From positions 97,759 to 161,758 of the forward strand of contig CAZRGC010000003.1 in assembly GCA_964599625.1 (NCBI GenBank): DNA of 64,000 bases, read 5' to 3'. Below the pieces are notes generated by a model. That model saw nothing but the letters and a program-made list of their open reading frames with translations. It was not told where the DNA came from and ran no database searches. Below, piece after piece: positions 6,560 to 60,746 of this stretch (position 1 is the first letter of the stretch; the number at the start of each line of letters is the position of its first letter). Source of the stretch: an uncultured Gammaproteobacteria bacterium. GTDB lineage: Bacteria > Patescibacteriota > Microgenomatia > UBA8517. Position numbers and translations under genes: made by a program.

Positions 6560-7032
6560 AAATATTAGTCATTTCTGACTCTCATGGACAAATTTCCAAC
6601 CTTGAACATATCTTGGGTTTTGCAAAAAAGATAGGCGCCGGGGCACTTATTCACTGTGGAGATTGGGATAATTTATCTTCCGTAGAAAAAGTTTTGGAGT
6701 CACAAATTCCGCTTTATTCAGTTTCTGGAAATGCCGATGTCGACCCCAGTATTAAAAAAAGACTAGAAGAAGGATCGGAAAAATATGGAGAAAACTTTCT
6801 GTATTTTGAGTTGGAAGGAAAAAAAATCGGAGTGACCCACAAACCTAAAGATGTTAAAAAATATTTTGAAAATAGTGGGGCAGATATAGTTTTTTGTGGA
6901 CATTTACACTCTGTAGACGACAATTTTGTTTCCGGAATCCGAGTTGTCAGACCCGGAGCGGTAAAATCAGGAATAAATATTGTTGTTTATGAAACAAAAA
7001 ATGGAGACCTAGAATTTATAAAAGATGAATGA
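6547..7032 (+). CDS. Metallophosphoesterase (YfcE/MJ0936 family phosphodiesterase)
   Basis: ILVISDSHG ... IHCGDW ... GHLH motifs typical of the calcineurin-like phosphoesterase family. Confidence 0.7.
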   Translation: MAKMKILVISDSHGQISNLEHILGFAKKIGAGALIHCGDWDNLSSVEKVLESQIPLYSVSGNADVDPSIKKRLEEGSEKYGENFLYFELEGKKIGVTHKPKDVKKYFENSGADIVFCGHLHSVDDNFVSGIRVVRPGAVKSGINIVVYETKNGDLEFIKDE

Positions 7033-7615
7033 AAGTATAATTCACGAAAAATACAAAAAACTCCACGAGTTAAAAGACAAAATGGAAAAGGACGAATCTT
7101 TACCTTTGAAAAAGGGTGCCACCCGCCTTGTTTTTGGAACCGGTAACACAGAAGCAAAGATTTTATGTATTGGGGAAGGGCCGGGCTTTAATGAGGACCG
7201 AGAAGGTCTGCCTTTTGTGGGACAAGCAGGGAGGTTGTTGGATAAACTTTTACATCTTGCAGGCATCGAGCGCAAGACGGTATTTATAACAAACGTTGTT
7301 CATCACAGACCCCCTGAGAACCGTGACCCGTTGCCAGAAGAAATATCCGCTTACGGAAAATACCTGGACGAAATAATAAAAATAATAAATCCTAAAATGA
7401 TTATTACACTTGGAAGGTTTTCAATGGCAAAGTTTTTACCTGATGTATTTATTTCTCAGGTGCATGGTAAAAATTACAAAGTTGATTTTGGAGGCAGAAC
7501 AGTAACTATTGTGCCAATGTATCATCCCGCAGCAAGTTTGAGGAACGGCAATATTTTAGAAGCAGAAAAAAAAGATTTTTTAGAACTCGGAAAAATATTG
7601 CGGGATTTTAATTAA
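7025..7615 (+). CDS. Uracil-DNA glycosylase, family 4
   Basis: GEGPGFNEDREGLPFVGQAGRLL and HHRPPENR.. motifs of family 4 UDG. Confidence 0.8.
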   Translation: MNESIIHEKYKKLHELKDKMEKDESLPLKKGATRLVFGTGNTEAKILCIGEGPGFNEDREGLPFVGQAGRLLDKLLHLAGIERKTVFITNVVHHRPPENRDPLPEEISAYGKYLDEIIKIINPKMIITLGRFSMAKFLPDVFISQVHGKNYKVDFGGRTVTIVPMYHPAASLRNGNILEAEKKDFLELGKILRDFN

Positions 7616-7649
7616 ACCGATTATTGGGTACAATATAGATACTTCGAAA

Positions 7650-9377
7650 ATGAAAACATCTTCGCAAAGCAAAAACATGAATGAAAAAAATATAAAAACC
7701 AATCCCTCGATAATGACAACAAAAGTTACAGGTGGAATGAAATTTATAGCACTTTCGGGAACAACAGGTGTTACAGAGAATCTTTATGTATATGAATACG
7801 GTAACGACATGGTTGTTGTTGACTGTGGTGTCGGGTTTCCCGAATCTGAAATGTTTGGGGTGGACCTGGTTATACCTGATTTTTCTTATATAAAACAAAA
7901 CGCCCACAAATTAAGAGGTGTTCTTATTTCTCATGGACACGAAGACCACATTGGAGGTTTACCTTTCCTGCTAAAGGAAGTAAAAACCACAGTGTATGCC
8001 AGTAAACTTGTTGCCGGTTTTATTCAGGAGAAACTTGATGATGCAGAGGTCCAGGGGAATATTAAAGTCTTTGACCCCGAACGTGATGTTTTGACACTTG
8101 GAGTTTTTAAAGTTACACCTTTCAGAGTTGCCCACTCGGTTCCCGATGGGGTTGGTTTTTGTATCGACACACCCGAAGGAAAAATGTTCCATGTGCCGGA
8201 TTACAAATTTGATTGGACACCTGTAGATGGTAGGCCGTTTGACGTCGCAAAACTTTCTGTTCTGGCATCTGGTGGTGCATTGGCCTTGGCATCGGATTCT
8301 CTGGGGTCTACTTCACCTGGATACACTGAAAGCGAGAGAGAGATAGAAGGCAGAATTGAACCTATTGTGCGGGACGCCAAAGGTAAGGTGTACCTGACCA
8401 CTATCTCGTCAAATATAAGTCGTATGCAGCAAACTCTTAATGTCGCAGCAAAAACAGGAAGAAAAGTATGTTTCATTGGCAGATCTATCGTCAGAAAGTC
8501 CGAAATAGCCAGAGATCTGGGTTTTATGTCGCAGGGGAACGGAATAATTGTTCAACCCAAACAAGCCGCCAAACTTCCACCCAATAAAGTTCTTTATATT
8601 ATTTCAGGTAGTTACGGTCAACCCGGAAGTGCACTATACAGGCTTTGTCTGGGCGACCACGACTTCTTGTCTATTGGCAGTAATGACGTGGTTATATTTT
8701 CGGCAGATCCTGCTCCTCCAGGCAGTAAGGCAAATGTTGATTTTTTGGTAGACAAATTAATCGAGTCTGATGTGGATGTGCATTATTACGACATGCAGGA
8801 AGATCTTCATGTTTCGGGACATGGATGTATCAAAGACATCGAAATGCTTTTTGCTTTAGTTAGACCAAAGTATTTTATACCAATTGGTGGAACAGTAAGA
8901 CACAATAGAGCATATGGACTTATTGCTCAAAGTATGGGTGCCGAAGAAAAAGAAATCCTTGCACTTTTGCCTGGCGACATTGTTGAGTTTAATTCTGGAA
9001 TAGCCAGAAGGTCCGGAAAAATTCAGGTTAAAGAGGTGCTGGTTGACGGATTAGGCATTGGAGATGTTGGCAATTCGGTATTAAGGGATAGACACATCCT
9101 TTCTAAAGAGGGAGTTGTTATTGCAATGTGCCAATTTGATCGCAACAACGGTGTTCTTTCCGCACTCCCCGAAATGATAAGCCGAGGTTTTGTTTTTGAA
9201 CAAAAATATGGCCGGCTTTTGGATGAAGCGTCACGGGACCTTGCAAAGGTCCTGGATAGAAAAAAGAATGTTAACGCGCTTTTTATACGAAACACTACGA
9301 TTGATTTTCTCGAAAAATATTTCTTCCAAAAAACAGGCAGGCGCCCAATGATACTTCCGTTGGTTGTGGAGACTTGA
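7650..9377 (+). CDS. rnj: Ribonuclease J (metallo-beta-lactamase / beta-CASP)
   Basis: VVVDCGVGFPE..ISHGHEDHIGGLPFLL, HVSGHG, beta-CASP region. 575 aa. The true start may be an internal Met (approx. 7737). Confidence 0.85.
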   Translation: MKTSSQSKNMNEKNIKTNPSIMTTKVTGGMKFIALSGTTGVTENLYVYEYGNDMVVVDCGVGFPESEMFGVDLVIPDFSYIKQNAHKLRGVLISHGHEDHIGGLPFLLKEVKTTVYASKLVAGFIQEKLDDAEVQGNIKVFDPERDVLTLGVFKVTPFRVAHSVPDGVGFCIDTPEGKMFHVPDYKFDWTPVDGRPFDVAKLSVLASGGALALASDSLGSTSPGYTESEREIEGRIEPIVRDAKGKVYLTTISSNISRMQQTLNVAAKTGRKVCFIGRSIVRKSEIARDLGFMSQGNGIIVQPKQAAKLPPNKVLYIISGSYGQPGSALYRLCLGDHDFLSIGSNDVVIFSADPAPPGSKANVDFLVDKLIESDVDVHYYDMQEDLHVSGHGCIKDIEMLFALVRPKYFIPIGGTVRHNRAYGLIAQSMGAEEKEILALLPGDIVEFNSGIARRSGKIQVKEVLVDGLGIGDVGNSVLRDRHILSKEGVVIAMCQFDRNNGVLSALPEMISRGFVFEQKYGRLLDEASRDLAKVLDRKKNVNALFIRNTTIDFLEKYFFQKTGRRPMILPLVVET

Positions 9378-9456: not shown

Positions 9457-11592
9457 ATGAAGCAAAGAAAAAGAATAACAAAACGGGGTTTCAAATTAAA
9501 ACTTAAGAAGGAAACTACTTTTTCTATTGCTCAGATTTTTTTCTTTATTTTTTCTGCTCTTATTTTGGTCTCTTTTTCAAAACAGGGCGCAATTCTTCGG
9601 GGTTTTAATGACTTTTTAACAAATTATTTTGGATGGTCTGCTGTGTTTTTGCCATTTATAACCCTGTCGTTTGCGTTTCTGGTGTCCAAAATTAAATTTC
9701 CTTTGGGTCAACCCAATGTTGTTGTCGGCGGACTTCTTTTTTTTGTTTCTGTGATGGCTTTGGGTAAGGCGGGGGCTTTGGGAGTGGGCTCCTGGGAGAT
9801 GATTGCCAGTTTGATATCTGGGTTTGGGGCTGGATTGGTTTTTTTCTGCTCGGCCTTTATTGGGTTAATAGTTCTTTTTAACACTTCAGTAGATGTTGTT
9901 TTTAAATATTTACAGGGACTTTTCAAGACAGCAAAAGGATATGTAAAAAGCGATACACAATTTAAAGTTAGCGGTTCCGGCATTAGTAAACCCTTAAGCA
10001 CGGGTCCTTTGAAAGTTGTTGGTGGTGGCGCTTCCCCAGCCATTAATTCGAATACTACGGTTACTCCTACAAAAACTACTGTACCCGCAGCCGTTCCTCA
10101 TGCTGCGCTTGAACAAAAGTTGGTGAGCAATGTTCCAGGCGAAGAGATGATTTGGAAATATCCGTCGGTAAATCTTCTTAGTGAAACGGACAATGGTAAA
10201 GCAGAGCGAGGAGATATCAAAGGCAACGCTGATACTATCGAGAAAACCCTGGACTCTTTTGGAATATCTGCGCGTGTTGTGGAAGTAAACCTTGGCCCTG
10301 CTGTCACACAGTATGCCCTAGAGGTGGCACTTGGAACCAAGCTTTCCAAAATAACCTCACTCGAACGTGATTTGGCATTGGCACTTTCCGCACCAACAGG
10401 AACTATAAGAATAGAGGCTCCAATTCCTGGGCGTAATTTAGTGGGAATTGAGCTTCCAAACCGATCTGCCGAGTTTGTGAGTCTAAGAAAAATGATGTCT
10501 TCTGATGAAATGCTGGGTCATAAATCTAAGCTCGCGGTTGCATTGGGTTTTGATGTTTCGGGTAAGCCTATTGTTGCAGATGTTGCCAGAATGCCCCATG
10601 TGCTTATTGCAGGACAAACAGGATCCGGAAAGTCTGTTTGTATAAACACTTTCCTTGCATCAATTCTTTTCAGAGCAGCACCAACCGAAGTAAAAATGAT
10701 ATTGGTTGACCCTAAGCGAGTAGAAATGACTGGTTACAATGGAATTCCCCATTTGTTGACCCCTGTTATAGTTGAGCCGGATAAAGTCATAAACGCTCTT
10801 AATTGGGTAATGGGGGAAATGGATAGAAGATACAAACAATTTGCCGAAGCAGGCGCCAGAAACATTGAGGCTTATAACGAGATGTCCGGTTTTCAAGCCC
10901 TGCCTTATATAGTTGTAGTTATCGACGAACTTGCTGATATTATGCTTTTTTCACCTGTTCAAGTTGAGGACGCCATTACCAGGATTGCACAAATGAGCCG
11001 TGCAACCGGGATACACATGGTCCTGGCAACTCAAAGGCCGTCTGTGGATGTCATTACCGGACTCATTAAAGCAAATGTACCAAGCAGGATTGCATTTGCC
11101 GTGTCGTCCCAAATTGACTCTCGTGTTATTTTGGATACACAAGGAGCAGAAAAGCTTTTGGGTAAAGGTGATATGCTTTATCTACCTCCGGAACAAGCTA
11201 AGCCGTTGAGAATTCAAGGGGCTTTCGTGAATGACAAAGAAATAAACGCTTTGGTATCGTTTATTAAAAATCAGGGAATTGAGCCGCACTACACCGAAGG
11301 TGTCACAACAAGTGTTAAGCCGGGCACTGTTGTAGTTCCGGGAGTTGAAGGAGGGGTTGATGATATGTTCAAAGAAGCGGTAAGGGTGGTGTGTCAATTT
11401 GATCGAGCAAGCGCGTCACTTTTGCAAAGAAAACTTTCAATTGGTTATTCAAGGGCAGCAAGAGTTATAGATCAGTTGGAAGCTGCGGGGGTGGTGGGCC
11501 CCTCTGATGGAACAAGTAAACCCAGAGAAGTATTGGTGCAAAATGCGGAAGAATTCCTTGCCTCATTCGGTGCTCAGCCAGCCCAAGGTTAG
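9457..11592 (+). CDS. ftsK: DNA translocase FtsK/SpoIIIE
   Basis: N-terminal TM segments. Motor domain with Walker A AGQTGSGKSVCIN, Walker B VVVIDELADIM, and a gamma wHTH domain at the C-terminus. Confidence 0.9.
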   Translation: MKQRKRITKRGFKLKLKKETTFSIAQIFFFIFSALILVSFSKQGAILRGFNDFLTNYFGWSAVFLPFITLSFAFLVSKIKFPLGQPNVVVGGLLFFVSVMALGKAGALGVGSWEMIASLISGFGAGLVFFCSAFIGLIVLFNTSVDVVFKYLQGLFKTAKGYVKSDTQFKVSGSGISKPLSTGPLKVVGGGASPAINSNTTVTPTKTTVPAAVPHAALEQKLVSNVPGEEMIWKYPSVNLLSETDNGKAERGDIKGNADTIEKTLDSFGISARVVEVNLGPAVTQYALEVALGTKLSKITSLERDLALALSAPTGTIRIEAPIPGRNLVGIELPNRSAEFVSLRKMMSSDEMLGHKSKLAVALGFDVSGKPIVADVARMPHVLIAGQTGSGKSVCINTFLASILFRAAPTEVKMILVDPKRVEMTGYNGIPHLLTPVIVEPDKVINALNWVMGEMDRRYKQFAEAGARNIEAYNEMSGFQALPYIVVVIDELADIMLFSPVQVEDAITRIAQMSRATGIHMVLATQRPSVDVITGLIKANVPSRIAFAVSSQIDSRVILDTQGAEKLLGKGDMLYLPPEQAKPLRIQGAFVNDKEINALVSFIKNQGIEPHYTEGVTTSVKPGTVVVPGVEGGVDDMFKEAVRVVCQFDRASASLLQRKLSIGYSRAARVIDQLEAAGVVGPSDGTSKPREVLVQNAEEFLASFGAQPAQG

Positions 11593-27731: not shown

Positions 27732-28511
27732 ATGTCTGGCCCCGATTCCCCTTTTCACTCAGACTCAAGTGTTTTCGAAACAAAAAACTCTCATATAGAC
27801 ACCCCTTTAGAGACAGTAATAAAAGCGGATTATTGGGCCAATTCACATTATCCTCAAATGTGGATAGCAAAACGCCTGGTTACAACGCACGCAGCTTTGG
27901 AACAGGTGCTTGCGGGAAAGTTGTTGTGGAGTGATTTTTCCACATCACAACTCCCCGACGTTTTTATTGAACCCCATATGAAAGAAAAGGCAAATAAAGC
28001 ACATGCTGCATATGGGCAACCTGCAATAATGGATCGTGATCTTAACAACCTGTGGAGGTCTGATGTAAGTGATGTATCAAATACACTTTGGAATTTGCTG
28101 CCCGACAAGGGAGACCCGTTGGAAATCCAAGACGTAACAATTGCCAAAGCCTTGAAAGACCCAAAAAATAAACAGTTTTTTGGGTCGTTGTTGGGTGTAT
28201 TGGCGGCAGAGAAGTCGGCCTTGGAAAGCCAGGAGTGCCTGGAGATATCAAAAGACCTGCGTGAGTCATTAAGAGACCTTCATCATAAAAAATTTGACCG
28301 CGGGTATAGTTTTTCTTTAAAGGAACAAGCTGACTTAAGGGTCAGATGGAACGCTATTTCAGACCGTCTCGAGTCTGTTTTGCAGCGGGAGCTTTCAAAG
28401 GCCAATCAAAAAGCAAAACTGATGCTTAACGATAGCCAATTGGAGTTTCTAACGCATCAAATCCATGTTGGTTCGAGAGTTGTGGCCAGTACGCCGATGG
28501 AGTCTTTTTGA
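27732..28511 (+). CDS. Hypothetical protein inserted between rpsG and fusA
   Basis: 259-aa ORF with no recognisable motifs. Occupies the position where fusA normally follows rpsG directly. Confidence 0.5.
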   Translation: MSGPDSPFHSDSSVFETKNSHIDTPLETVIKADYWANSHYPQMWIAKRLVTTHAALEQVLAGKLLWSDFSTSQLPDVFIEPHMKEKANKAHAAYGQPAIMDRDLNNLWRSDVSDVSNTLWNLLPDKGDPLEIQDVTIAKALKDPKNKQFFGSLLGVLAAEKSALESQECLEISKDLRESLRDLHHKKFDRGYSFSLKEQADLRVRWNAISDRLESVLQRELSKANQKAKLMLNDSQLEFLTHQIHVGSRVVASTPMESF

Positions 28512-30805: not shown

Positions 30806-31600
30806 ATGAATTTCTTTAAGAAAGTTGCTTCTAGTGTTTATTCCCCGGAGTTCTATTCCCAAATACCCAAAATGACACTTGGTTCTGTGTTGGGTTATTT
30901 TTTCTTGCTGCTTCTAGTGGTCGAACTTGTCATGTTTGGCAAAAGCATGCCGGAGTTTATGTTTGGTTTCTCAGGAAAGATAAAATCTACAATAAGCGAG
31001 GTTATCGACACTTATCCCAGTAATTTGGTTTTGACAATCAAAGATGGAGCGCTTTCCACCAATGTTAAGGAGCCTTACTACCTTATGGATAAAACCAACA
31101 ACAAGTTCGCGGTTATAGACACAAAAACTGCATACTCTGCCGATCAATTTAAAAAGTACAACGTACCGGTCTGGGTTACCAAAGATACTGTTTTTTACCA
31201 AGACAGCGACCAAATCAAGAGCAATAGTTTTGTAGAGATGAAAGATATGGTGGTAAACAAAGAACTTGTAAACAGTTTTTCTGCCAAAATATCTCCCTGG
31301 ATTCCATATTTTGGCCCTGTTGTTATGATTTTTGCACTCGTAACTCTTTACGCCCTCCAATCTTTCAGACTGGTTTATGGGTTTTTCCTTGCACTTTTAA
31401 TTTTGCTGGTTGCCAAAATGACCAAGAAAAGTCTGACGTATAAAGAATCTTACAAAGTAGGGATATTTGCCATGACACTACCCTTTATTTTAGAAGCGCT
31501 TAATACCTATATCGGTTGGAAGGCTTTTCCGTTCACTTTTACTATAATTGCACTTATTGTTGTTGGCGTAAATTTTGCAGGATCCAACTCGAAGAAGTAG
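30806..31600 (+). CDS. Hypothetical integral membrane protein inserted between fusA and tuf
   Basis: 264 aa with hydrophobic helices at the N- and C-termini (..LGYFFLLLLVVELVMF.., ..VMIFALVTLYAL.., ..IIALIVVGVNF..). Confidence 0.5.
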   Translation: MNFFKKVASSVYSPEFYSQIPKMTLGSVLGYFFLLLLVVELVMFGKSMPEFMFGFSGKIKSTISEVIDTYPSNLVLTIKDGALSTNVKEPYYLMDKTNNKFAVIDTKTAYSADQFKKYNVPVWVTKDTVFYQDSDQIKSNSFVEMKDMVVNKELVNSFSAKISPWIPYFGPVVMIFALVTLYALQSFRLVYGFFLALLILLVAKMTKKSLTYKESYKVGIFAMTLPFILEALNTYIGWKAFPFTFTIIALIVVGVNFAGSNSKK

Positions 31601-31754: not shown

Positions 31755-32945
31755 ATGGCAGACGCAAAACAAAAATTTGATCGCAGCAAACCACACGTAA
31801 ACATTGGTACTATTGGTCACGTTGATCACGGAAAGACAACCTTGACCTCTGCTATCACCATGGTTCTTGCCAAGCAAGGACTCGCCACAGCTAAGAAATA
31901 CGAAGACATCGATTCAGCCCCAGAAGAGAAAGAAAGAGGAGTTACAATCAACCTTTCTCACCAAGAATACCAAACAGCAAAAAGACACTATGCTCATATT
32001 GACGCTCCTGGCCATGCCGACTATATCAAGAACATGATTACCGGTGCAGCACAAATGGACGGAGCAATTCTGGTTGTTTCCGCAGCAGACGGACCCATGC
32101 CTCAGACAAGAGAACACGTTATTTTGGCCAGACAGGTTAACGTGCCAGCTTTGGTAGTTTTCCTCAACAAATGTGATACAGTTGATGATCCAGAAATTAT
32201 CGACTTGGTAGAAGCAGACGTAAGAGAACTTCTCAAAAAATACGAATACCCAGGAGATGAAGTTCCTGTAATTCGAGGTTCCGCTCTCAAAGCAGTCGAA
32301 GGCGACGCAGAAGCAGAAAAGAAGATCACAGAGCTCATGGATGCAGTAGACAGCTACATCCCTGATCCTGTAAGACAAACAGATAAACCTTTCTTAATGC
32401 CTGTTGAAGACGTATTTACAATTTCAGGACGCGGAACAGTTGTTACAGGTAGAGTAGAACGCGGAGTTATCAAAGTTAACGAAGAAATTGAAATAGTTGG
32501 TATCAAAGACACAGCAAAGTCAGTTGTCACAGGTCTTGAGATGTTCAGGAAGACTTTGGACGAGGCTATGGCAGGTGACAACGTTGGAGTTCTTCTAAGA
32601 GGTGTAGAAAAAGATCAAGTAGAAAGAGGACAAGTTCTCGCAAAGTCGGGAAGTGTTACTCCGCACACAGAATTTGAAGCAGAAGTTTATATTCTTTCAA
32701 AGGAAGAAGGAGGAAGACACACGCCTTTCTTTACAGGTTACAAACCTCAGTTTTATATTAGGACTGCAGATGTAACAGGAGAAGCAACACTCCCCGAAGG
32801 AATCGAAATGGTTATGCCTGGCGACAACGCTAAGATGAAAGTCAAACTTATTCAGCCAGTAGCTCTCGAGGAAGGTCTTAGGTTTGCAATCAGAGAAGGC
32901 GGACACACAGTAGGTGCAGGAGTTATCACCAAGGTACTTGTATAA
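31755..32945 (+). CDS. tuf: Elongation factor Tu
   Basis: [22 protein letters not shown]. 396 aa. Confidence 0.97.
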
Positions 32946-32985
32946 CCGCTAAAAGCTTTCACGCTTCTAGCTCTTTCATAAGGAT

Positions 32986-33291
32986 ATGGCAATTAGACTA
33001 AGAGTCAAACTTAAAAGTTATGACCACAGGGTCTTAGATGAAGCAGCCGGTAAAATTATAGATACCGCGCTATCATCTGGTGCAAAAATTGTCGGTCCTA
33101 TTCCTCTCCCCACAAACCGCAGCGTAATGGCAATCAAAGAATCACCATTTACGGACAAAGACGCTCAGGAACACTTTGAAGTTCTAACCCACAAAAGACT
33201 TATTGATATTTTGGACCCAACCCCCAGAACTGTTGATTCTTTGGGCAACCTCGACCTCCCTGCGGGAGTTTCTATCGAGATTAAGATGTAA
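32986..33291 (+). CDS. rpsJ: 30S ribosomal protein S10
   Basis: [34 protein letters not shown]-like signature. Confidence 0.95.
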
Positions 33292-33318
33292 GGCCTCTTG
33301 TTCGACCAAACCCCATAG

Positions 33319-33346
33319 TTGGAATAACTGAACTACCTGATATAAT
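33319..33346 (+). promoter_or_regulatory. Island promoter P1 (CCCATAGTTGGAA-16nt-TATAAT)
   Basis: TTGGAA 33319-33324, TATAAT 33341-33346. Shares the CCCATAGTT(T/G)G upstream motif with P2-P4. Confidence 0.5.
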
Positions 33347-33392
33347 GCCAATGTCTGAATTAAGTTAGATCTTTGTACAATCAAAAAGGAAT

Positions 33393-33701
33393 TTGACTAT
33401 GGATCCGATAAGAGTAGTTGTTGCAGTGGATGGCGACAAGGCAAAGTTCCACACCACTTTTCCGTTGGACGTGTATTTACCAGGACGACAAAAAAGGTCT
33501 GAAAAAGGCCAGGAGCTGGTAAACAAGTTGAAAGAGGTCAAGGGTATTAAAAACGAAGAGTTGGATATCTGGATCTACGAATATGAAATTTCGGCCAATA
33601 AGCTACACGCCTTTAAATGGAAGGATGAGGTCGCACCTGCTGTAGTTGAGGTTCTCAAGACCTTTTACAATCTCGGCACAGTCGAAATTGTATACGAATA
33701 A
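33393..33701 (+). CDS. Island ORF1, hypothetical protein (102 aa)
   Basis: ORF with its own promoter and downstream terminator. No recognisable motifs. Confidence 0.5.
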   Translation: MTMDPIRVVVAVDGDKAKFHTTFPLDVYLPGRQKRSEKGQELVNKLKEVKGIKNEELDIWIYEYEISANKLHAFKWKDEVAPAVVEVLKTFYNLGTVEIVYE

Positions 33702-33734
33702 TACCCTGTCCGAATATCTGTTGTGTTAGTTTTT

Positions 33735-33771
33735 GCTCCGCTTTGTGGAAATTTCCCGGGCGGAGTTTTTT
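33735..33771 (+). terminator. Rho-independent terminator, repeat-module copy 1 (GCTCCGC-loop-GCGGAG + TTTTTTGTGGC)
   Basis: 6-7-bp GC stem, 18-nt loop, T6 tract. Confidence 0.6.
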
Positions 33772-33793
33772 GTGGCCAACATTAGTCCCATAG

Positions 33794-33823
33794 TTGGATT
33801 TATGGTGGTTAATCTGCTAGAAT
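33794..33823 (+). promoter_or_regulatory. Island promoter P2 (CCCATAGTTGGAT-18nt-TAGAAT)
   Basis: Hexamers at 33794-33799 and 33818-33823. GGAGG RBS before the ATG at 33867. Confidence 0.45.
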
Positions 33824-33866
33824 CCGCTAGCACGTTGAATTATTACAGAACGTCCTTGGAGGAACA

Positions 33867-35015
33867 ATGATTCTTGGACTGAAATTAACTGTCGAAAACG
33901 ACGATATTGTCGACATTGGCGGAGATTTGTACGTCAAAAACTCCAAAGCCATGAAGCGTCTTCACAGGGAGCTTCGCTACCTGGGATACCAAATCGACAA
34001 CTTGCGGCACGATAAATACCGCTTGGACAAGGGAGCCACCCCGCGCGAAATGGAAAAAGGTGGTTGGTCGCTTTGGTTTGCCAAGTTACCCAATATCAGA
34101 CGTGGTGTCTGTGGAAGCTGTGGAGCAACCATTTCCACTCTCGGCATTCAGTCACACGGCCACAAATGCGAGAGGTGCGGCGAAGTGACCTACTGGGAAA
34201 TGGTGGAAGGATCAGTAATCCGGTTCGTCTTTTTGCAAAAAGAGGGCCGTGGAATGTGGGATCCCGAGCTTAAGATGAAAGTGCACCATTGGGATACGCG
34301 TGAAGGGCTTTTATATCTTTACCCGGAAGCCTTGGAAGGTGGCCTTTCGACTGTGACGGGAGATACAGCACGGCAGTACTTGGGCAATAACCACGAAAAG
34401 TGGAATGTAGTCACGATCGATGGCCAAAAAATTATCGTGATCAAGTACCCCAAGCAGTGGCGGCGCGATACGGCTGTTATCGAACCTTATGAGATTTACG
34501 GTCATCAGTGGAATCACAAGATCGTCAAAATCTACAAAGGTAAACATTACAGTGACTGGGACCGGCTCCCTGTTCCCGAGACATTTTCTATCTACGAAAC
34601 CTGGCACTGGGACAAGCTTGTGGCTTCGCCAACATTGCACAGGCGTGTATTGCAGGCTGTTCACAACACCGATGACAAGGGTTGGCACTACCAAGACGGT
34701 CGTCCCTGGTTTAGAGAAGGAAGCTGGAAGGGCATGGCAAAGTTTATTCGCCATTTTACAGCCCTTGATGCTGATGCCTTTGACCGAGCCTGGCCACGTT
34801 TCAGAAACGACGGTCCCGGCGGGATCGACGACTTGGCACACTTCTGTCACCCCAAAGCCATCACTCGTGATGAGCCAAACATAGGTAATGTTCTTGTTGC
34901 CATGGGGAAACGCATGGAAAATAAGTCTCTCACGCGCGATGAGATCGAAGCAGCCAAACGCGGCTTGAGCGATCCATTGACGGGTGATTTTTTACGTTCC
35001 CTGCGTAAGCGTTAG
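33867..35015 (+). CDS. Island ORF2, hypothetical Trp/His-rich protein with a Cys4 zinc ribbon (382 aa)
   Basis: CGSCG...HKCERCG cluster. Many W/H/Y residues. Higher local GC by eye. No family motif recognised. Confidence 0.55.
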   Translation: MILGLKLTVENDDIVDIGGDLYVKNSKAMKRLHRELRYLGYQIDNLRHDKYRLDKGATPREMEKGGWSLWFAKLPNIRRGVCGSCGATISTLGIQSHGHKCERCGEVTYWEMVEGSVIRFVFLQKEGRGMWDPELKMKVHHWDTREGLLYLYPEALEGGLSTVTGDTARQYLGNNHEKWNVVTIDGQKIIVIKYPKQWRRDTAVIEPYEIYGHQWNHKIVKIYKGKHYSDWDRLPVPETFSIYETWHWDKLVASPTLHRRVLQAVHNTDDKGWHYQDGRPWFREGSWKGMAKFIRHFTALDADAFDRAWPRFRNDGPGGIDDLAHFCHPKAITRDEPNIGNVLVAMGKRMENKSLTRDEIEAAKRGLSDPLTGDFLRSLRKR

Positions 35016-35028
35016 TTTTGGAGTCTCA

Positions 35029-35066
35029 CTCCGCCTTGTGGAAATTTCCCGGGCGGAGTTTTTTGT
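35029..35066 (+). terminator. Rho-independent terminator, repeat-module copy 2 (CTCCGCC-loop-GGCGGAG + TTTTTTGTGGC)
   Basis: 7-bp stem, 16-nt loop, T6 tract. Confidence 0.65.
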
Positions 35067-35087
35067 GGCTAAAATAAGCCCCATAGT

Positions 35088-35116
35088 TTGACATAACTTT
35101 GAACCTTTGATATATT
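35088..35116 (+). promoter_or_regulatory. Island promoter P3 (CCCATAGTTTGACA-17nt-TATATT)
   Basis: TTGACA 35088-35093, TATATT 35111-35116. Confidence 0.55.
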
Positions 35117-35156
35117 CACAAGGTTTATTTGCACATTATGGTTAAAAGGAGAGACT

Positions 35157-35660
35157 ATGGGAATTACCCATGCAGAGGGTGTTGACTTGCAAGAGTGGGC
35201 GAATGCTCACAAACCGGATGATGACTTGATTTACAGGGATGGTTATTGGCATCAAATCATCTTTGTCCGGGATCGCTTGCCACAGCCGCTTTTTGGCTCA
35301 TACGAAGAGTACAAAGCCAATCCGGTACGCGTGGTGGGTGATCATACAAGCAAATCAGTACTCCTTCCTGTTTACAGTATCAAATTTGCTCCTCTCGAAA
35401 TTCGGATGCGTTACAACTTTTACGACTGGAAAGTGAGTGTGGTATCTCAAGTTCCCATCAGGTCGAACTTTTACCCGTTCCTTTTTAGAGATGAAGCTGT
35501 GCACCCGGTTTATTTTGAGGGTTTTACCAATGACTGGGTTTTTGGCTCCTACTCTGCCGACAACACCAAATTTTCTGTTGAAATTAGCAACGAACACATG
35601 TTGTTCGCTTTCATGGCTATTTTAGCGGGTGATTTGGGCTTGGGAGGCAATAAGAAGTAG
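35157..35660 (+). CDS. Island ORF3, hypothetical protein (167 aa)
   Basis: GAGAG RBS. No recognisable motifs. Confidence 0.5.
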   Translation: MGITHAEGVDLQEWANAHKPDDDLIYRDGYWHQIIFVRDRLPQPLFGSYEEYKANPVRVVGDHTSKSVLLPVYSIKFAPLEIRMRYNFYDWKVSVVSQVPIRSNFYPFLFRDEAVHPVYFEGFTNDWVFGSYSADNTKFSVEISNEHMLFAFMAILAGDLGLGGNKK

Positions 35661-35672
35661 TTTGGAGCTCAA

Positions 35673-35710
35673 CTCCGCTTTGTGGAAATTTCCCGAGCGG
35701 AGTTTTTTGT
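35673..35710 (+). terminator. Rho-independent terminator, repeat-module copy 3 (CTCCGC-loop-GCGGAG + TTTTTTGTGGC)
   Basis: 6-bp stem, 18-nt loop, T6 tract. Confidence 0.6.
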
Positions 35711-35731
35711 GGCAAAAACAAGTCCCATAGT

Positions 35732-35761
35732 TTGACAAAGCCTCGAATATGGTTTTATAAT
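35732..35761 (+). promoter_or_regulatory. Island promoter P4 (CCCATAGTTTGACA-18nt-TATAAT)
   Basis: TTGACA 35732-35737, TATAAT 35756-35761. Confidence 0.55.
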
Positions 35762-35804
35762 CATCTGTTGTCAGAAATTTGTACTTTACAAAAAATAGCT
35801 TGGC

Positions 35805-35846
35805 AGGCAGCTTTTTACCCGTAAAATTTATGGTTGAAAAGCTGCC
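35805..35846 (+). promoter_or_regulatory. 10-bp stem-loop in the 5' UTR of island ORF4 (GGCAGCTTTT ... AAAAGCTGCC)
   Basis: Perfect inverted repeat with a 22-nt loop, about 75 nt upstream of the ORF4 ATG. Confidence 0.4.
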
Positions 35847-35922
35847 TACGGATGATAGTGAGGCGTATGGGAGCACTCCTAAAACAAAAACCAAATAAAA
35901 ATTAGAAAGTAACAGGAGCAAA

Positions 35923-36300
35923 ATGTCTCAATCTCAAAAGCGCGTTTCCGAACGCGAGGTACCCGAAGTCAATCCCAACAAGAGGTTTTTCCCAGACTTT
36001 CCTCTTTGCAACGACACGGCTACCCACACAAGCTATTCATACAGGAACAAGAAGGATGTCGGTGAAAAGGGTGTCGCCTTGGTAGAGGCTGTTTTGGCAA
36101 TCCACGGCGTGATCGATCTGACGATCTCAAAGAATGAACTTCGGGTCGTCAAACAACCTGCCCACACCTGGGAAGAGGTTACACCTTTGATCCACAATGC
36201 TTTCAGGCATGTTTACGGCGACGATATCAAATTTATCGGAGAAAACAAGGCTATTTTGGCCTACAGACGTCTCCGAGTTGCCATGAACGTGGCTAAGTAA
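35923..36300 (+). CDS. Island ORF4, hypothetical protein (125 aa)
   Basis: AGGAG RBS. No recognisable motifs. Confidence 0.5.
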   Translation: MSQSQKRVSEREVPEVNPNKRFFPDFPLCNDTATHTSYSYRNKKDVGEKGVALVEAVLAIHGVIDLTISKNELRVVKQPAHTWEEVTPLIHNAFRHVYGDDIKFIGENKAILAYRRLRVAMNVAK

Positions 36301-36315
36301 CATCAATGGCCTTCC

Positions 36316-36348
36316 GGCCCAAATCTCACAAGGTTTGGGCCTTTTTTG
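36316..36348 (+). terminator. Rho-independent terminator closing the island (GGCCCAAA-loop-TTTGGGCC + TTTTTTGTGGG)
   Basis: 8-bp stem followed by T6GTGG, the same tail as the three repeat-module terminators. Confidence 0.65.
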
Positions 36349-36353
36349 TGGGT

Positions 36354-36393
36354 TTGACCCGTGCTTGCGGCGTTTTGGTATATCTGATATAAT
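36354..36393 (+). promoter_or_regulatory. Putative promoter region re-initiating transcription into rplC (TTGACC ... TATATC / TATAAT)
   Basis: TTGACC 36354-36359. Candidate -10 hexamers at 36379-36384 and 36388-36393. A further small hairpin (GCGCCTTCCGAAGGCGC + T6) lies at ~36478-36500. Confidence 0.35.
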
Positions 36394-36539
36394 TCCGAAT
36401 AACAAATATGGTGGTTACAATGTTTGCTCAACCACGCTAAGTTAGTCTTTGGCAGATGCCTCACTGGCGCCTTCCGAAGGCGCTTTTTTGTTTAATGTCC
36501 TTCGACTCGCAAGAGCTCGCTCTAGGATCCAAAACAAAT

Positions 36540-37265
36540 ATGATCAACACAATTTTAGGTTCCAAGCTGAAAAACAGTCAAACCTTCTTGCAAGGGTTTA
36601 GGATTCCCGTGACCAAAATCATGGCAGGCCCCTGTACAGTCACTCAAATTAAGAAAATGGACAAAGATGGATATTGGGCAGTTCAGATCGGATTCGGTAC
36701 CAGACGCACCAAAGTTACTTCAAAAGCACTCCAAGGACACCTCAAACTAACAGCAAAAGAAAACCTTTTCCCCAGACATCTTAGAGAAATAAGATTAACA
36801 GAAGAACCCGAGTTTAAAGTAGGCGATACAATAAATGTCGCCGATATTTTTGCTGCAGGGGACGTTGTTGCTGTCACTGGGGTTTCCAAAGGCAAGGGAT
36901 TTGCCGGCGTTGTCAAAAGGCACGGTTTTCGTGGAGGACCCAGAACTCATGGACAATCTGACCGCGAACGCGCACCCGGATCAATCGGACAAACAACAAC
37001 ACCAGGCAGGGTCTACAGAGGCAAAAGAATGGCAGGAAGAATGGGTGGCGAACAAATAACCATCAAAAATTTGCATGTGGTATCAGTGAATGCAGACACC
37101 GGCGAGGTGGAAATTTCAGGACAGGTTCCGGGATCCGTTGGAACACTTCTTTCAATCAAAAAGATCAAAGCAGGCAGTCTTAAAGATTTGGAACACGAAA
37201 CAGTTGCTCAGGTAGTAGAAGGAGAAGGTGCTAAGGTTGCAGGTTCGGCACCAAAATCAGAATAA
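36540..37265 (+). CDS. rplC: 50S ribosomal protein L3
   Basis: L3 signature (..GVSKGKGFAGVVKRHGF.GGP..HG). Start placed at ATG 36540; the longer ORF-track start at 36456 would read through the leader hairpins. Confidence 0.9.
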   Translation: MINTILGSKLKNSQTFLQGFRIPVTKIMAGPCTVTQIKKMDKDGYWAVQIGFGTRRTKVTSKALQGHLKLTAKENLFPRHLREIRLTEEPEFKVGDTINVADIFAAGDVVAVTGVSKGKGFAGVVKRHGFRGGPRTHGQSDRERAPGSIGQTTTPGRVYRGKRMAGRMGGEQITIKNLHVVSVNADTGEVEISGQVPGSVGTLLSIKKIKAGSLKDLEHETVAQVVEGEGAKVAGSAPKSE

Positions 37266-46504: not shown

Positions 46505-47476
46505 GTGGCTCAAAAAGAAGACGACTCCTACCAAAAATATCTTGAAGACAAACACTTGGCATTTGCAACGCCCGAAAGTCTGGTATCGTCTATGGTAAAA
46601 AAGGCAACGGGATCAGAACCCTTTTCTGTCGAAAAGTTGATTCAGGGTGAAGTGAACGAGGTTTATGATGTGGAGGCTGGTGGTCAAAATGTAATAGTAA
46701 GAATTTCCCGACAAGGACCGGAAAATTTTGAAACCGAAGAAACTGTAATACGCCTCGCTTTGCAAGCAGGTGTACCCGCTCCCAAAGTTCTTCTTTTGGA
46801 ATCTGCCTCAACCGAAACCGAAGAATTGACCTTTTGTATAGAAGAAAAGATTGAAGGAAAGCCATTGAAAGAATTACTAAAAACTCTGGACGCAGAAACT
46901 CTCAAGGCAATTCTGATTCAGTCGGGCGAGATATTATCCCGTATCCATTCATTGGAAACGGACAGATTTGGGCCCTTGGATAGGCAGGTCTTTTATCCTT
47001 CATGGACAGAATATTTATTCAGGAAGGAAGAAAATAAACGTGAGATAATTGAGTATGGCTCTAAAGTGGGACTCCTGCCCGGTGTTATAGATAAAGCCTT
47101 TTCTATACAAAGGAAAAACTCAGGAATTTTGGAAATACAAATCCCCTATATTCTGCACGGCGATTTTAGTCCCAAACACATTCTCACGAATGGAAAAACA
47201 GTCACTGGAATAATAGATTTTGAAGACGCCAAAGGAGGCGATCCGGTGAGAGATATTGCTTGGATGAACTTTTTTTATGGCGATTCGGTAAATCTTGAGT
47301 GGTTTTTAGAAGGATACGGAAGGGAAAAAACAGGAATGGACTTTGATATAAAAATGAGACTTTTGAAAGTTAACTTGGGACTGGACCTGTTGGATTATTA
47401 CGGATCAGAAGGTAATATTTCAGGACTTAAATACTCGAAACGTAAATTGGAGGAAGAGATGGAATTTTTCAAATGA
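46505..47476 (+). CDS. Phosphotransferase enzyme family (APH/choline-kinase-like) protein
   Basis: Brenner motif LHGDFSPKHIL (HGDxxxxN) and IIDFEDA (D-F/x-E metal-binding loop). N-terminal nucleotide-binding lobe. Confidence 0.7.
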   Translation: MAQKEDDSYQKYLEDKHLAFATPESLVSSMVKKATGSEPFSVEKLIQGEVNEVYDVEAGGQNVIVRISRQGPENFETEETVIRLALQAGVPAPKVLLLESASTETEELTFCIEEKIEGKPLKELLKTLDAETLKAILIQSGEILSRIHSLETDRFGPLDRQVFYPSWTEYLFRKEENKREIIEYGSKVGLLPGVIDKAFSIQRKNSGILEIQIPYILHGDFSPKHILTNGKTVTGIIDFEDAKGGDPVRDIAWMNFFYGDSVNLEWFLEGYGREKTGMDFDIKMRLLKVNLGLDLLDYYGSEGNISGLKYSKRKLEEEMEFFK

Positions 47477-47483
47477 CCCGACA

Positions 47484-48065
47484 ATGAATTCAAACACAAT
47501 AGTAATTTTGGGAACCCTGATTGGTGCAATTGGCTCGATCTTTTATCTTGTCGACGTTGTTAAGGGAAAAATAAAACCCAATCGGGTTTCTTTTATTCTT
47601 TGGTCACTCCCACCATTGATATCTGCATACGCAAATATTAAAAGTGGCGGTGGAATTGAATCTTTAATGACTTTTAGTGTTGGTTTTTTTCCACTGCTTA
47701 TATTTTTGGCAACTTTTCTCAACAAAAAATCCGTTTGGAAACTTACCAAATTTGATTTTGTTTGCGGCGCACTTTCACTTTTGGGATTCCTGCTTTGGCA
47801 GGTAACAAAAGAAGGATATTTGGCAATAACTTTTAGTATAGTTTCCGATTTTTTGGCTGGAATTCCCACCATAACAAAAACTTACAAACACCCAGAAACG
47901 GAACTGGCTTGGCCCTGGTTGATGCCGGTCTTGGGAGAAATTCTTACACTTTCCACACTTGGGGATATTACTTATCTCAACTCAGGTTTCATGATTTACG
48001 TAACTTTGTATAACACAGTCATTTTTCTTTTGGCGCAGTATAAAATCGGAAAGATATGGAAATAA
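47484..48065 (+). CDS. Hypothetical integral membrane protein (about 6 TM)
   Basis: 193 aa with alternating hydrophobic helices. No family motif recognised (PnuC-like was considered, not supported). Confidence 0.45.
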   Translation: MNSNTIVILGTLIGAIGSIFYLVDVVKGKIKPNRVSFILWSLPPLISAYANIKSGGGIESLMTFSVGFFPLLIFLATFLNKKSVWKLTKFDFVCGALSLLGFLLWQVTKEGYLAITFSIVSDFLAGIPTITKTYKHPETELAWPWLMPVLGEILTLSTLGDITYLNSGFMIYVTLYNTVIFLLAQYKIGKIWK

Positions 48066-48562
48066 TTAAACTACCTGTTTCAGAGTGGAAAAGTTATAAA
48101 GCAATAAGGCTTCGAGCTCTCAAGGAAGACCCTCAGGCATTTGGAGCCTCATACGACGATGCGGTCAAATTTGACGAGTCCGAATGGAGACGCAGGCTTG
48201 AAAATGCCGAAAATTCGGACAGAAGTTGGTTATGGTTTGCACAAGAAAACCAGAAAATTGTAGGCCTTATTGGGGCATATATGGAAAAAGGTGCAACAAA
48301 TGAGGCAACTATAGTTTCTGTTTTTGTTCCCAAGGAAGAAAGAGGGAAAGGAATATCGAGCCTTTTGATGGATAAGATGATATCCGAACTTTCAGCTAAA
48401 CCATATCTCAAAAAAATTAATTTGACTGTGAACAAAGACCAAGTAGCGGCCGTAAATCTTTATACAAAGTTTGGTTTCGTAAAAGTCGGTGAGCAAAATT
48501 TTAAAATGGGAAACGGTCAGAAGGCTGTGGAATTTGTTATGGAAAGACAAATTAGCACTTAA
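48056..48562 (+). CDS. GNAT family N-acetyltransferase
   Basis: Motif A region (..RGKGISSLLMDKMISEL..) and C-terminal ..NLYTKFGF.. typical of GNAT. Confidence 0.75.
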   Translation: MEIIKLPVSEWKSYKAIRLRALKEDPQAFGASYDDAVKFDESEWRRRLENAENSDRSWLWFAQENQKIVGLIGAYMEKGATNEATIVSVFVPKEERGKGISSLLMDKMISELSAKPYLKKINLTVNKDQVAAVNLYTKFGFVKVGEQNFKMGNGQKAVEFVMERQIST

Positions 48563-59042: not shown

Positions 59043-60131
59043 ATGGCAAACAAGAAAAAACCCGAAACAGACGCACCGGTCAAACAAGAAGGTGCATCCG
59101 CAAAGCTTCAGGCAATCAAACTTGCCATGGATCAGATTGAGAAACAATACGGAAGGGGTTCCATTATGCGACTTGGAGAAAGAACTCCGGAGCAAATGAA
59201 AATAGAAGTAATCTCAACAGGGGCAGTTGCCTTGGACTTGGCACTTGGAGTGGGTGGATTTCCCAGGGGAAGGATAATTGAAATCTATGGACCAGAAGCT
59301 TCCGGAAAAACTACACTGGCATTATCAGTAATTGCAGAAGCTCAGAAAAAAGGCGGGCAGTGTGCTTTTGTAGATGCAGAACATGCTCTAGACCCAGTAC
59401 GGGCCGAAACAATAGGAGTTGATTTGGACAATCTTCTTATGAGCCAGCCTGATACAGGCGAGCAGGCTTTAGAAATTACAGAAACTTTAATCAGGTCGGG
59501 TGCGCTGGACGTTGTCGTTGTTGACTCGGTCGCCGCTCTTGTGCCGCGGGCAGAGTTGGAGGGTGAAATGGGTGACTCTGTCATGGGTATGCAGGCACGC
59601 CTTATGTCCCAAGCATTAAGAAAGCTCACAGGCGCAATTTCCAAGTCTAAAACTGTTCTTATATTTACAAACCAACTCAGACAAAAAATCGGTGTCATGT
59701 TTGGAAATCCGGAGACAACACCCGGCGGACTTGCGCTTAAGTTTTATGCATCCGTAAGAATTGACACCAGAAGGATAGAAGTCCTGAAAGATGGTGAACG
59801 TGTAATTGGTTCACGCCACAGGGCCAGAATAGTCAAAAACAAAGTTGCGCCCCCTCTTCGAGTAGCTGAATTCGACATAATGGAGTCAGAAGGAATATCC
59901 AAGTCCGGCGGACTTTTGGATGTGGGACTTGAGCTTGGTATAGTTGGAAAAAACGGTTCATTCTTTAATTACGACGGTAAACCCATAGCCCAAGGAAAAG
60001 AGGCTGCCAAAATGTATCTTTCCGACAATCCCAAAGTTGCAGACGAGATAGAAAAGAAAATCCGCGATATGGCAACCTCCGGAAAAAAGCTTCCCAAGGA
60101 AATAGGCGAAGAAGATTCAGAGGAAGAGTAG
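59043..60131 (+). CDS. recA: Recombinase RecA
   Basis: Walker [14 protein letters not shown]1/L2 loops, ..[22 protein letters not shown]... Confidence 0.97.
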
Positions 60132-60140
60132 AATAAGATT

Positions 60141-60746
60141 GTGCCGACAGTCACTTCATTAAAAAGCCAGAAAAAAGACGGAAGAGTTAATGTTTTTATA
60201 GATGGCAAATTTGGATTCGGAATAGACCTGGACAATTTAGTTCTCCAAAAAATAAAAATCGGAAAAGAGTTTACCGACGAAGAATTGGCAGAGGTGGTTA
60301 AAAAAGCAGAGTTTCAAAAGACTTTGGACAAACTCTTGGCATATGCAACACTCAGACCCAGGTCAGAAAAGGAAGTGTCCAACTACTTCAAAAGAAAAAA
60401 GATTCATGATAGTTTATGGAACACCCTTACCGACAAACTTCGGCATTTTGAACTTTTGGACGATCTTAAATTTGCCCGTTGGTGGGTGGACCAAAGGCAA
60501 TCTTTCAAGCCCAAGCCAAAAAGAATATTGGTTGCGGAACTAAAGACAAAGGGTATAAAAGATGTTTTTATTGAAGAGGTTTTGGGTGAAACAAAATTGG
60601 ATGAGGTGGTTATGGCCAAAAACATTTTGGAAAAAAGATCCTATAAATGGGCCAAATTTGAACCAAGGATAGCACGACAAAAAATGGCGCAATACCTGGG
60701 TGGAAAAGGTTTTTCTTGGGAAACTATTGAGAAAGTTCTTCCTTGA
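60141..60746 (+). CDS. recX: Regulatory protein RecX
   Basis: Three-helix-repeat RecX pattern (..LAYATLRPRSEKEV...ARWWVDQR..). Immediately downstream of recA. Confidence 0.75.
   Translation: MPTVTSLKSQKKDGRVNVFIDGKFGFGIDLDNLVLQKIKIGKEFTDEELAEVVKKAEFQKTLDKLLAYATLRPRSEKEVSNYFKRKKIHDSLWNTLTDKLRHFELLDDLKFARWWVDQRQSFKPKPKRILVAELKTKGIKDVFIEEVLGETKLDEVVMAKNILEKRSYKWAKFEPRIARQKMAQYLGGKGFSWETIEKVLP

Follow-up and report, generated by a model that had tools for sequence, protein, structure and literature searches.

A repeated, predicted terminator-promoter unit between the genes of a strain-variable island in the rpsJ-rplC gap of a Patescibacteria (CPR) genome

The S10 cluster ranks among the most conserved gene orders in bacteria, and genes that interrupt it raise the question of how they might be expressed there and how they might come and go. 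We consider this question for a stretch of 64,000 nucleotides from an uncultured member of the Patescibacteria, or Candidate Phyla Radiation (CPR) (assembly GCA_964599625.1, contig CAZRGC010000003.1, positions 97,759 to 161,758; "the window" in what follows), where an island of four genes, g1 to g4, is wedged into the core region between rpsJ and rplC and where a composite unit of ~75 nucleotides (nt) recurs between the genes. A preliminary description of this DNA regarded the unit as a terminator joined to a promoter and as a possible cassette boundary, which might insulate the island genes from each other or serve a recombination system that adds cassettes. Our analysis favors the interpretation, to which we would assign a probability of roughly 0.7, that the units are composite terminator/promoter insulators that also supply homology for the recombinational shuffling of gene cassettes. 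A strain-variable array of ORFan genes, each predicted to be transcribed independently, is unexpected inside the S10 cluster, and the recurrence of its design across species of a CPR lineage is even more so.

The genes of the region all lie on one strand, in the order rpoB/C, rpsL, rpsG, fusA, a DUF1189 gene, tuf (31755-32945), rpsJ (32986-33291), g1 (33399-33701), g2 (33867-35015), g3 (35157-35660) and g4 (35923-36300), followed by a promoter, a leader, rplC (about 36540-37265), rplD, rplW and rplB, the ribosomal-protein and polymerase genes of the window being identified by position only. The island genes and the regulatory features described below are on the plus strand. One unit stands between each pair of neighboring island genes, as the preliminary description had it, and within every full unit the order of parts is a 12-pair hairpin, six T residues (T6), GTGGC, a short spacer, CCCATAGTTKGA and a -10 box; the left half is a predicted Rho-independent terminator and the right half a predicted sigma-70-type promoter. 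Unit A (33736-33823) consists of a hairpin at 33736-33765, T6 at 33766-33771, GTGGC, CCCATAG at 33787-33793, the -35 box TTGGAT at 33794-33799 and the -10 box TAGAAT at 33818-33823. The same parts are found in unit B (35029-35116: hairpin 35029-35058, T6, GTGGC, CCCATAG 35080-35086, TTGACA 35088-35093, TATATT 35111-35116) and in unit C (35673-35761: hairpin 35673-35702, T6, GTGGC, CCCATAG 35724-35730, TTGACA 35732-35737, TATAAT 35756-35761). By prediction, unit A would stop g1 and promote g2, unit B would stop g2 and promote g3, and unit C would stop g3 and promote g4. A promoter-only copy at 33311-33346, the predicted g1 promoter, lies directly 3' of rpsJ without a hairpin (CCCATAG, TTGGAA, 16 nt, TGATATAAT) and is identical in the related contigs L095 and L097. 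The island is closed by a predicted terminator at 36316-36347 (11-pair stem, 4-nt loop, T6 then GTGG), for which the scan returned 36316-36341 plus TTTTTTGTGG and which is common to arrays ending in g4 and to arrays ending in a different gene, ORF144. A repeat finder reported a direct repeat of 87 nt in three copies (33724-33810, 35017-35103 and 35661-35747; 75-85% identity) and a CCCATAGTTKGA family in four (33312, 33787, 35080 and 35724); motif strings of the unit are also given as GGAAATTTCCCGNGCGGAG and CCCATAGYTKGA. These results and our reading of the region bear out the coordinates and motifs given earlier for the three full copies, and both the promoter-only copy, with an exact CCCATAGTTKGA at 33312, and the closing terminator with its T6GTGG tail, returned by the terminator scan, were found where the preliminary description had placed them.

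When folded as RNA, each hairpin forms a 12-pair stem with two bulged U residues and an AAUU tetraloop, followed by U6 (-18.7 to -21.2 kcal/mol, z -2.5 to -3.2); the 16-nt loop proposed for it earlier proves to be mostly an extension of this stem. The hairpins start 12-34 nt past the stop codons of g1, g2 and g3, contain an inner palindrome, GGAAATTTCC, and have the sequence features of intrinsic terminators. Their base pairs are kept in 72 of 72 pair cells across six sequence variants from several samples, the three variable positions being occupied by C-G, U-G, U-A and U-G, U-A. The spacers of the units are scrambled while the hairpin and CCCATAGTT stay intact. Scores for the -35 and -10 boxes were 12/12 (35732), 11/12 (35088) and 10/12 (33319); the promoter of copy A, taken directly from the sequence, is weaker (TTGGAT, 18 nt, TAGAAT). 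A Shine-Dalgarno sequence of the GGAG type precedes the start codon of every island gene, which together with the boxes gives the features of sigma-70-type promoters. The strong hairpin with its U tract, the consensus -35 and -10 boxes and the Shine-Dalgarno sequence ahead of every gene fit the earlier terminator-promoter reading, which we regard as sound on these sequence features.

Both in the window and in the related loci, about a dozen in number, the units are confined to the rpsJ-rplC gap. The 17-mer GCGGAGTTTTTTGTGGC from the hairpin tail has three exact occurrences in the 64 kb where 0.36 would be expected, a number reached in none of 100 shuffles, and all four exact occurrences of CCCATAGTTKGA in the window are within the island. 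Neither the hairpin nor the CCCATAG promoter signature was found outside the island in the window, which holds many operon boundaries, and the CCCATAG box is absent from the window's other consensus promoters (19501 and 31611). Matches to the degenerate string CYATAGYTKGA in the window and in the related loci L004, L093, L094 and L095 are limited to the gap and to the plus (coding) strand. A 19-mer of the hairpin gave 47 single matches, in unrelated organisms and evidently by chance, among 185,579 species-representative genomes (a set that does not include the source genome) and none in IMG/VR, and a 26-mer gave none in the JGI metagenomes. No CCCATAG box was found upstream of g2 homologs in 21 JGI loci or in a Woesebacteria genome (L008), and the box thus appears tied to the gap and not to g2. 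A six-frame translation of the unit, compared with a protein database for spurious ORFs (open reading frames) that might overlie further copies, gave one candidate and none that was significant; a search of the window against Rfam gave nothing at the gathering threshold and, below it, only small-RNA models dominated by terminators. A role as DNA-uptake sequence was rejected on the absence of the motif from the other ~60 kb of the window.

Among very close relatives, we found three arrangements at the gap, and their comparison supports the earlier idea of a cassette boundary: the strains and species represented by the window, L093 and L095 differ by whole genes, with break points inside the unit. 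The array of the window is g1-A-g2-B-g3-C-g4. Its junction g1-A-g2 is confirmed by contigs L099, L102 and L103, the stretch from unit A through g2 to the left half of unit B by L001-L003, and that from the right half of unit B through g3, unit C and g4 to rplC by L057. Contigs L095 and L096, from two samples and with flanks 99.6% and 97.5% identical, respectively, to those of the window, carry g1, one unit, ORF144 and the same terminal terminator, without g2. The third arrangement, in L093, which judged by its flanks is from a different species, reads g1'-unit-g3'-unit-ORF144-terminal terminator and also lacks g2; this contig is unambiguous for an assembler working at k=31, since no run of more than 23 bases is common to its two units. 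Positions 253-329 of L093 are 96% identical to unit B, yet the gene upstream of them is g1' and not g2, and farther along the same contig a left half as in unit C is followed by the promoter not of g4 but of ORF144. To judge from these sequences, the unit is a joint, at which the left half moves with the upstream gene and the right half with the downstream gene.

The break points of the L095 exchange, which we infer from patterns of divergence, point in the same direction. On the left, L095 is identical to the window over 32940-33771, and divergence sets in at 33772, within the T run of unit A; on the right, mismatches are dense between 36292 and about 36690, a position inside rplC, and then give way to near-complete identity. 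Contigs in the Logan assemblies from at least seven samples (L001-L003, L097, L098, L100 and L101) end precisely within the hairpin or T run of the unit, from which it follows that the repeat fragments assemblies, and the unit explains the breaks that short-read assemblies show at the rpsJ-rplC locus. One such contig ends in T7 instead of T6G, which is the L095 variant, and a single sample probably contains several types of array.

Comparison of L093 with the window gives a mosaic of divergence. Synonymous divergence (dS) is normally low in ribosomal-protein genes. Here, the g3 block with both of its units is 93.5% identical in nucleotide sequence, with a dS of 0.28 and a ratio of nonsynonymous divergence (dN) to dS of 0.05 for the g3 coding sequence, whereas rplC is 87.6% identical (dS 0.68) and rplD 76.7% (dS 1.68). 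Gene g1 is 68.5% identical, with saturated dS, and the terminal terminator plus rplC leader, non-coding DNA to which dS does not apply, is 75.8% identical. Between L093 and L095, dS is 0.44 for ORF144 and 1.74 for rplD. A cassette dS below that of the ribosomal-protein genes would mean more recent shared ancestry of the cassettes, that is, cassette exchange between species, and the low dN/dS of the cassettes indicates that they contain real genes under selection.

The gap is a hotspot in other relatives as well. We surveyed it by looking up exact and related proteins in public assemblies and by examining relatives whose tuf is at least 90% identical, and found it to be empty or to contain from one to six unrelated genes. 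In L113, it is empty and consists of 211 nt with only the rplC promoter and leader; in L104 and L107, it holds one gene; in L094, three genes, including a homolog of g4; in L004, four genes, including a homolog of g2 at 69% identity; in L110, five small ORFs; and in L111, six genes, including a homolog of g3 at 60% identity. The g2 homologs of more distant CPR genomes stand in unrelated contexts, without the unit. An exact 31-nt repeat in L110, GTAGTTTACTTCTTCTTCTTCTTCTTGTCAA (2396-2426 and 3252-3282), lies just upstream of two minus-strand gap genes and starts with TTGACA on the reverse strand, and is another duplicated regulatory element in this hotspot.

A second instance of the design is provided by L111, from a third species, whose six gap genes are separated by three copies of a different predicted terminator hairpin (TAGCCCTGAAC...GTTCAGGGCTA, then T7; about 2075, 3688 and 4979) and which has three promoters with CCCATAG or CCCATAA, reading CCCATAGCTTGA or CCCATAATCTTGACA. 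On this sequence comparison, the design is one that recurs while the hairpin sequence is species-specific, as would be expected if copies within an array were homogenized or spread by local recombination. CCCATAG or CCTATAG is kept beside the -35 box in L004, L094 and L111, where coding DNA has diverged to 66-82% identity, which points to a function, or to common descent, of the promoter half. The -10 regions of the g1 promoter (33334-33349, TACCTGATATAATGCC) and the rplC promoter (36381-36396, TATCTGATATAATTCC) are alike at 14 of 16 positions, and the rplC promoter of the empty site in L113 (7556-7600) reads CCCCTTTAGTTGCAT, resembling CCCCATAGTTGGA. We speculate that the island promoters may have been derived as copies of the native rplC promoter.

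How might the units operate? We infer both their activities as terminators and promoters and the agency of RecA-type recombination, as well as any role of the CCCATAG box. The left half of a unit would terminate the upstream gene, and the right half, marked by the lineage-specific CCCATAG near its -35 box, would drive the downstream gene, so that every accessory gene would be transcribed as a unit of its own in a gap flanked by two highly expressed operons. Read-through of the strongly expressed tuf-rpsJ transcript would be halted by the unit, which would likewise protect rplC and its downstream genes; these have a promoter and leader of their own. Exact identity between unit copies extends over 34-41 nt, by virtue of which the unit could act as portable homology. 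Recombination of a unit with another unit, or with incoming DNA whose anchor lies in rplC, would then delete, insert or replace genes together with their own signals, with the rpsJ-rplC gap as a hypervariable cassette array as the outcome. RecA and RecX are encoded in the window (59043-60746). Homologous recombination is favored over a site-specific system because of the break point internal to rplC, the lack of a recombinase among the ORFs screened in the window and the species specificity of the hairpins.

Several points weigh against this interpretation. The g2-to-g3 junction at unit B is seen in the window's own assembly alone, since the Logan contigs break inside the repeat, and the strain comparisons are drawn from short-read metagenome contigs. 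Constraint specific to the gene could partly underlie the low dS of g3; the non-coding units and untranslated region of the g3 block are equally high in identity between L093 and the window (90-96%). Covariation in the hairpin is not significant, with 237 of 500 shuffles doing as well, because the copies are nearly identical and provide too little variation. All functional claims for the unit derive from its sequence. The motif count, finally, spans the window and the related loci, and further copies may exist elsewhere in the source genome.

A different origin of the repeat would be implied if the unit were the organism's generic strong terminator and promoter, or a dispersed repeat resembling REP (repetitive extragenic palindromic) sequences or MITEs (miniature inverted-repeat transposable elements), whose presence in the island is incidental. 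Repeated intergenic hairpins are common in bacteria, and the rest of the source genome lies outside the scanned sequence. The confinement of both hairpin and CCCATAGTTKGA to the island within the 64 kb and to the gap in related loci, together with the chance nature of the 19-mer matches in representative genomes and their absence from IMG/VR and, for the 26-mer, from the JGI metagenomes, speaks against such a repeat, and neither terminal inverted repeats nor target-site duplications were found at the units; we judge this explanation improbable. Only a little less doubtful is the suggestion that a regulator binds the near-invariant hairpin, inner palindrome included, and the CCCATAG box and in this way accounts for their conservation, with the island as a regulon and the shuffling as a by-product. 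It would account for the box being kept near the -35 in the diverged species L004, L094 and L111 and for the scrambling of spacers around intact hairpins and CCCATAGTT, but no candidate regulator was identified, the palindrome is explained by the pairing of the stem, and L111 keeps the promoter box with an unrelated hairpin, so that the hairpin sequence is not conserved across species. Binding by a regulator is, moreover, compatible with the insulator and shuffling functions that we favor.

A dedicated site-specific recombinase, acting in an integron-like or new type of cassette-capture array in which circular cassettes insert at the unit, would be in keeping with one conserved site after each gene, with gene content that differs between strains at those sites and with an almost invariant hairpin sequence. 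A recombination system was the other possibility raised in the preliminary description, and a dedicated one found no support. No integrase, transposase or other site-specific recombinase was identified with Pfam among the screened ORFs of the window; the unit has a simple hairpin, with no inverted R''/R' core (RYYYAAC, GTTRRRY) around it, no inverse core upstream of it and GTTGGAT in copy A only, copies B and C having GTTTGAC; the right break point of the L095 exchange is within rplC and not at a unit; and the presence in L111 of a different hairpin in the same layout is more readily explained by local homology than by a conserved site for a recombinase. The integron/attC reading was rejected on the missing integrase, the missing attC cores and the fact that every cassette has its own promoter, unlike those of integrons, and we consider a dedicated recombinase very unlikely. 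We take an equally skeptical view of the island as a phage remnant, with moron-like genes that brought their promoter-terminator motifs along and a repeat that reflects phage architecture. The layout is exactly that of the hyperplastic regions of T4-type phages discussed below (PMC2839356), and a g2 homolog (39% identity) occurs on a 327-kb IMG/VR contig with a repeated promoter motif of its own. Against this, no PHROG family matched the island proteins at E < 0.003, no phage structural or integration genes were found, no viral loci were found for g3 or ORF144, and the hairpin is absent from IMG/VR; furthermore, the GC content of the island is near that of its flanks and the g2 and g3 families are widespread on CPR chromosomes in non-phage contexts.

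Several known systems resemble the insulator and shuffling array that we propose. Closest among those described are the PeSLs (promoter-early stem-loops) of T4-type phages, short repeated elements that combine a sigma-70-like promoter with a terminator stem-loop and lie in hyperplastic ORFan regions, which were shown to be active as promoters and terminators and were proposed to mediate modular shuffling and the formation of mini-circles (Arbiol et al. 2010, PMC2839356; Comeau et al. 2014, PMC4122927). By analogy, the unit might be called functionally PeSL-like. In both cases, a repeated promoter and stem-loop composite stands between ORFan genes in a variable region among conserved core genes; the motif marks the limits of insertions, deletions or replacements between close relatives, here the window, L095 and L093; and the proposal is one of insulation plus homologous recombination between motifs, with genes moving together with their own signals. 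In contrast to the PeSLs, which are found in T4-type phages, the units here reside in a CPR chromosome, in a tuf-rpsJ / rplC-rplD-rplW-rplB cluster with no phage genes, and have no sequence similarity to PeSLs. They also keep a fixed order, in which about 20 nt separate the -35 box from the hairpin upstream of it; the stem-loop of a PeSL, by contrast, may be found at any of five positions with respect to its promoter. The units number three to four copies at one locus, as opposed to about 50 per phage genome. An incomplete search of the literature found PeSLs, and the use of regulatory cassettes as handles for recombination, described for phages only, and it found no paper on S10-operon insertions in Patescibacteria.

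Going by the definition given in PMC3082526, which cites Snyder et al. 2007, the minimal mobile elements (MMEs) of Neisseria are comparable in that a conserved gene pair, here rpsJ and rplC, has different whole-gene cassettes between its members and no mobility genes, a state seen here in the empty L113 and in the one to six genes of L004, L093-L096, L104, L107, L110, L111 and the window. As that definition has it, incorporation of MMEs is by homologous recombination, for which the present counterparts would be the two break points, one inside rplC and one inside the unit, deduced from divergence. MMEs use only the homology of the flanking genes, whereas the internal repeated units here split the site into several independently exchangeable slots. 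With integrons, the array shares tandem cassettes of one gene with a conserved structured repeat behind each, and content that varies between strains; it differs in the lack of an integrase among the screened ORFs and of attC cores, in the predicted promoter and terminator that each cassette has of its own and in break points that fit general homologous recombination. Phage morons, too, are inserted between two genes of a conserved operon as single genes that have a promoter and a terminator of their own on either side, but there is no prophage context here and the bracketing elements are copies of one another.

The main interest of these observations lies in the location within the S10 cluster of a CPR bacterium and in the parallel with the plasticity of phage genomes. 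The idea that regulatory cassettes can serve as handles for recombination, known from T4-type phages, would with them be extended to a cellular genome. They also suggest a testable route by which CPR bacteria, with tiny genomes and probable competence, might sample accessory genes without the machinery of mobile elements. For the emerging genetics of Patescibacteria, native terminators and promoters could be drawn from the unit as candidate parts, and a permissive site for insertions is provided as well. We would go further only as an unlikely speculation, namely, that the lineage keeps a dedicated cassette slot in the S10 cluster in which ORFans are captured, expressed and exchanged between species by way of the terminator/promoter units, the exchange perhaps involving excised circles of module and gene together with natural competence, and CCCATAG perhaps being read by a specific factor. 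Such a slot, if real, would amount to a cellular version of integrons and of phage PeSL shuffling that needs no recombinase, at a site where expression and inheritance are guaranteed.

The island genes themselves are without recognized functions in the form of matches to Pfam, PHROGs, PADLOC or NCBIfam; for g1-g4, ORF144 and the other gap genes, nothing was above threshold. Gene g1 encodes 100 amino acids (aa) and is essentially an ORFan, with only three weak matches among 1.84 billion representative proteins; its product and that of the L093 allele are 58% identical, with dN well below dS. A comparison of g1 with g4 as possible paralogs gave no alignment. Gene g2 (382 aa) belongs to an uncharacterized CPR-wide family with four invariant Cys residues, of which there are at least 102 relatives (35-69% identity), found only in CPR bacteria; the invariant residues, Cys82, Cys85, Cys101 and Cys104, make up a zinc-ribbon-like motif, and a WHYQDG motif is conserved. 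The confident AlphaFold model of g2 (pLDDT 92, pTM 0.79) has no significant match in PDB or BFVD, and the predicted fold may be undescribed. The IMG/VR contig with the g2 homolog mentioned above (L105, IMGVR_UViG_3300028800_000001, 327 kb, classed viral) has densely packed small ORFs on the same strand and, within 11 kb, at least four copies of a promoter-like motif TTCTGAAWAT..ATAGAAA..CTTGACGTT (1368-1400, 6786-6818, 7608-7684 and 10625-10701). The contig could derive from a huge phage that infects CPR hosts and relies on a repeated-promoter design of the same kind.

Gene g3 (167 aa) also belongs to an uncharacterized CPR-wide family, with at least 56 relatives, from CPR bacteria only, and its AlphaFold model, likewise confident (pLDDT 93, pTM 0.89), has no significant match in PDB. 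The g3 homolog of L111 likewise resides in the rpsJ-rplC gap, beside a DUF7919 protein and behind a long structured untranslated region (UTR; 2614-2799). Gene g4 (125 aa) has a weak Nfu_N-like match and a long structured 5' UTR; its homolog in L094 is 43% identical, and L093 and L095 have ORF144 in its position. The UTR of g4 (~160 nt, 35762-35922) contains a hairpin at 35805-35847 with 21-nt arms. A hairpin in the same place ahead of the L094 homolog (UTR 10206-10337) has other arm sequences, GGCAGCTTTT/AAAAGCTGCC versus GGTAGTTTTC/GAAAACTACC, which differ on both sides, such that the pairing has been kept by changes in both arms.

The rplC promoter and leader (36366-36539) form the right-hand conserved flank of the gap, with TTGCGG, 17 nt and TGATATAAT in the predicted promoter and a terminator-like hairpin at 36466-36484. 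The leader between this dedicated promoter and rplC is conserved in the window (36396-36539), L004 (7517-7655), L093 (1585-1690), L094 (10808-10955), L095 (4990-5138), L104 (8100-8250), L111 (5146-5290) and L113 (7596-7732). Its parts are a hairpin, GGTGGTTA...CAACCAC, a conserved stretch, GTTAGTCTTTG, and a predicted terminator (GGCGCC...GGCGC, T6, GTTTAATG), and TCCAAAACAAATATG stands at the start codon of rplC, without an obvious Shine-Dalgarno sequence. Folding of the alignment suggests that the conserved stretch can pair with an arm of the terminator and so make an antiterminator. The leader has no match in Rfam and may be an undescribed ribosomal-protein attenuator of the CPR rplC-rplD operon.

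Other junctions of the str, S10 and spc clusters (27732-28511, 30806-31600 and 46505-48562) contain non-ribosomal genes that differ between relatives, none of them with the repeated unit of the island. The rpsG-fusA junction encodes a 259-aa protein of no family, and in its place are a PIN/PhdYeFM toxin-antitoxin pair in L108 (2046-3317) and a DUF559 protein in L113 (2522-3632). The fusA-tuf junction holds the DUF1189 gene, and the rplO-secY junction holds an APH gene, an unknown gene and a GNAT gene.

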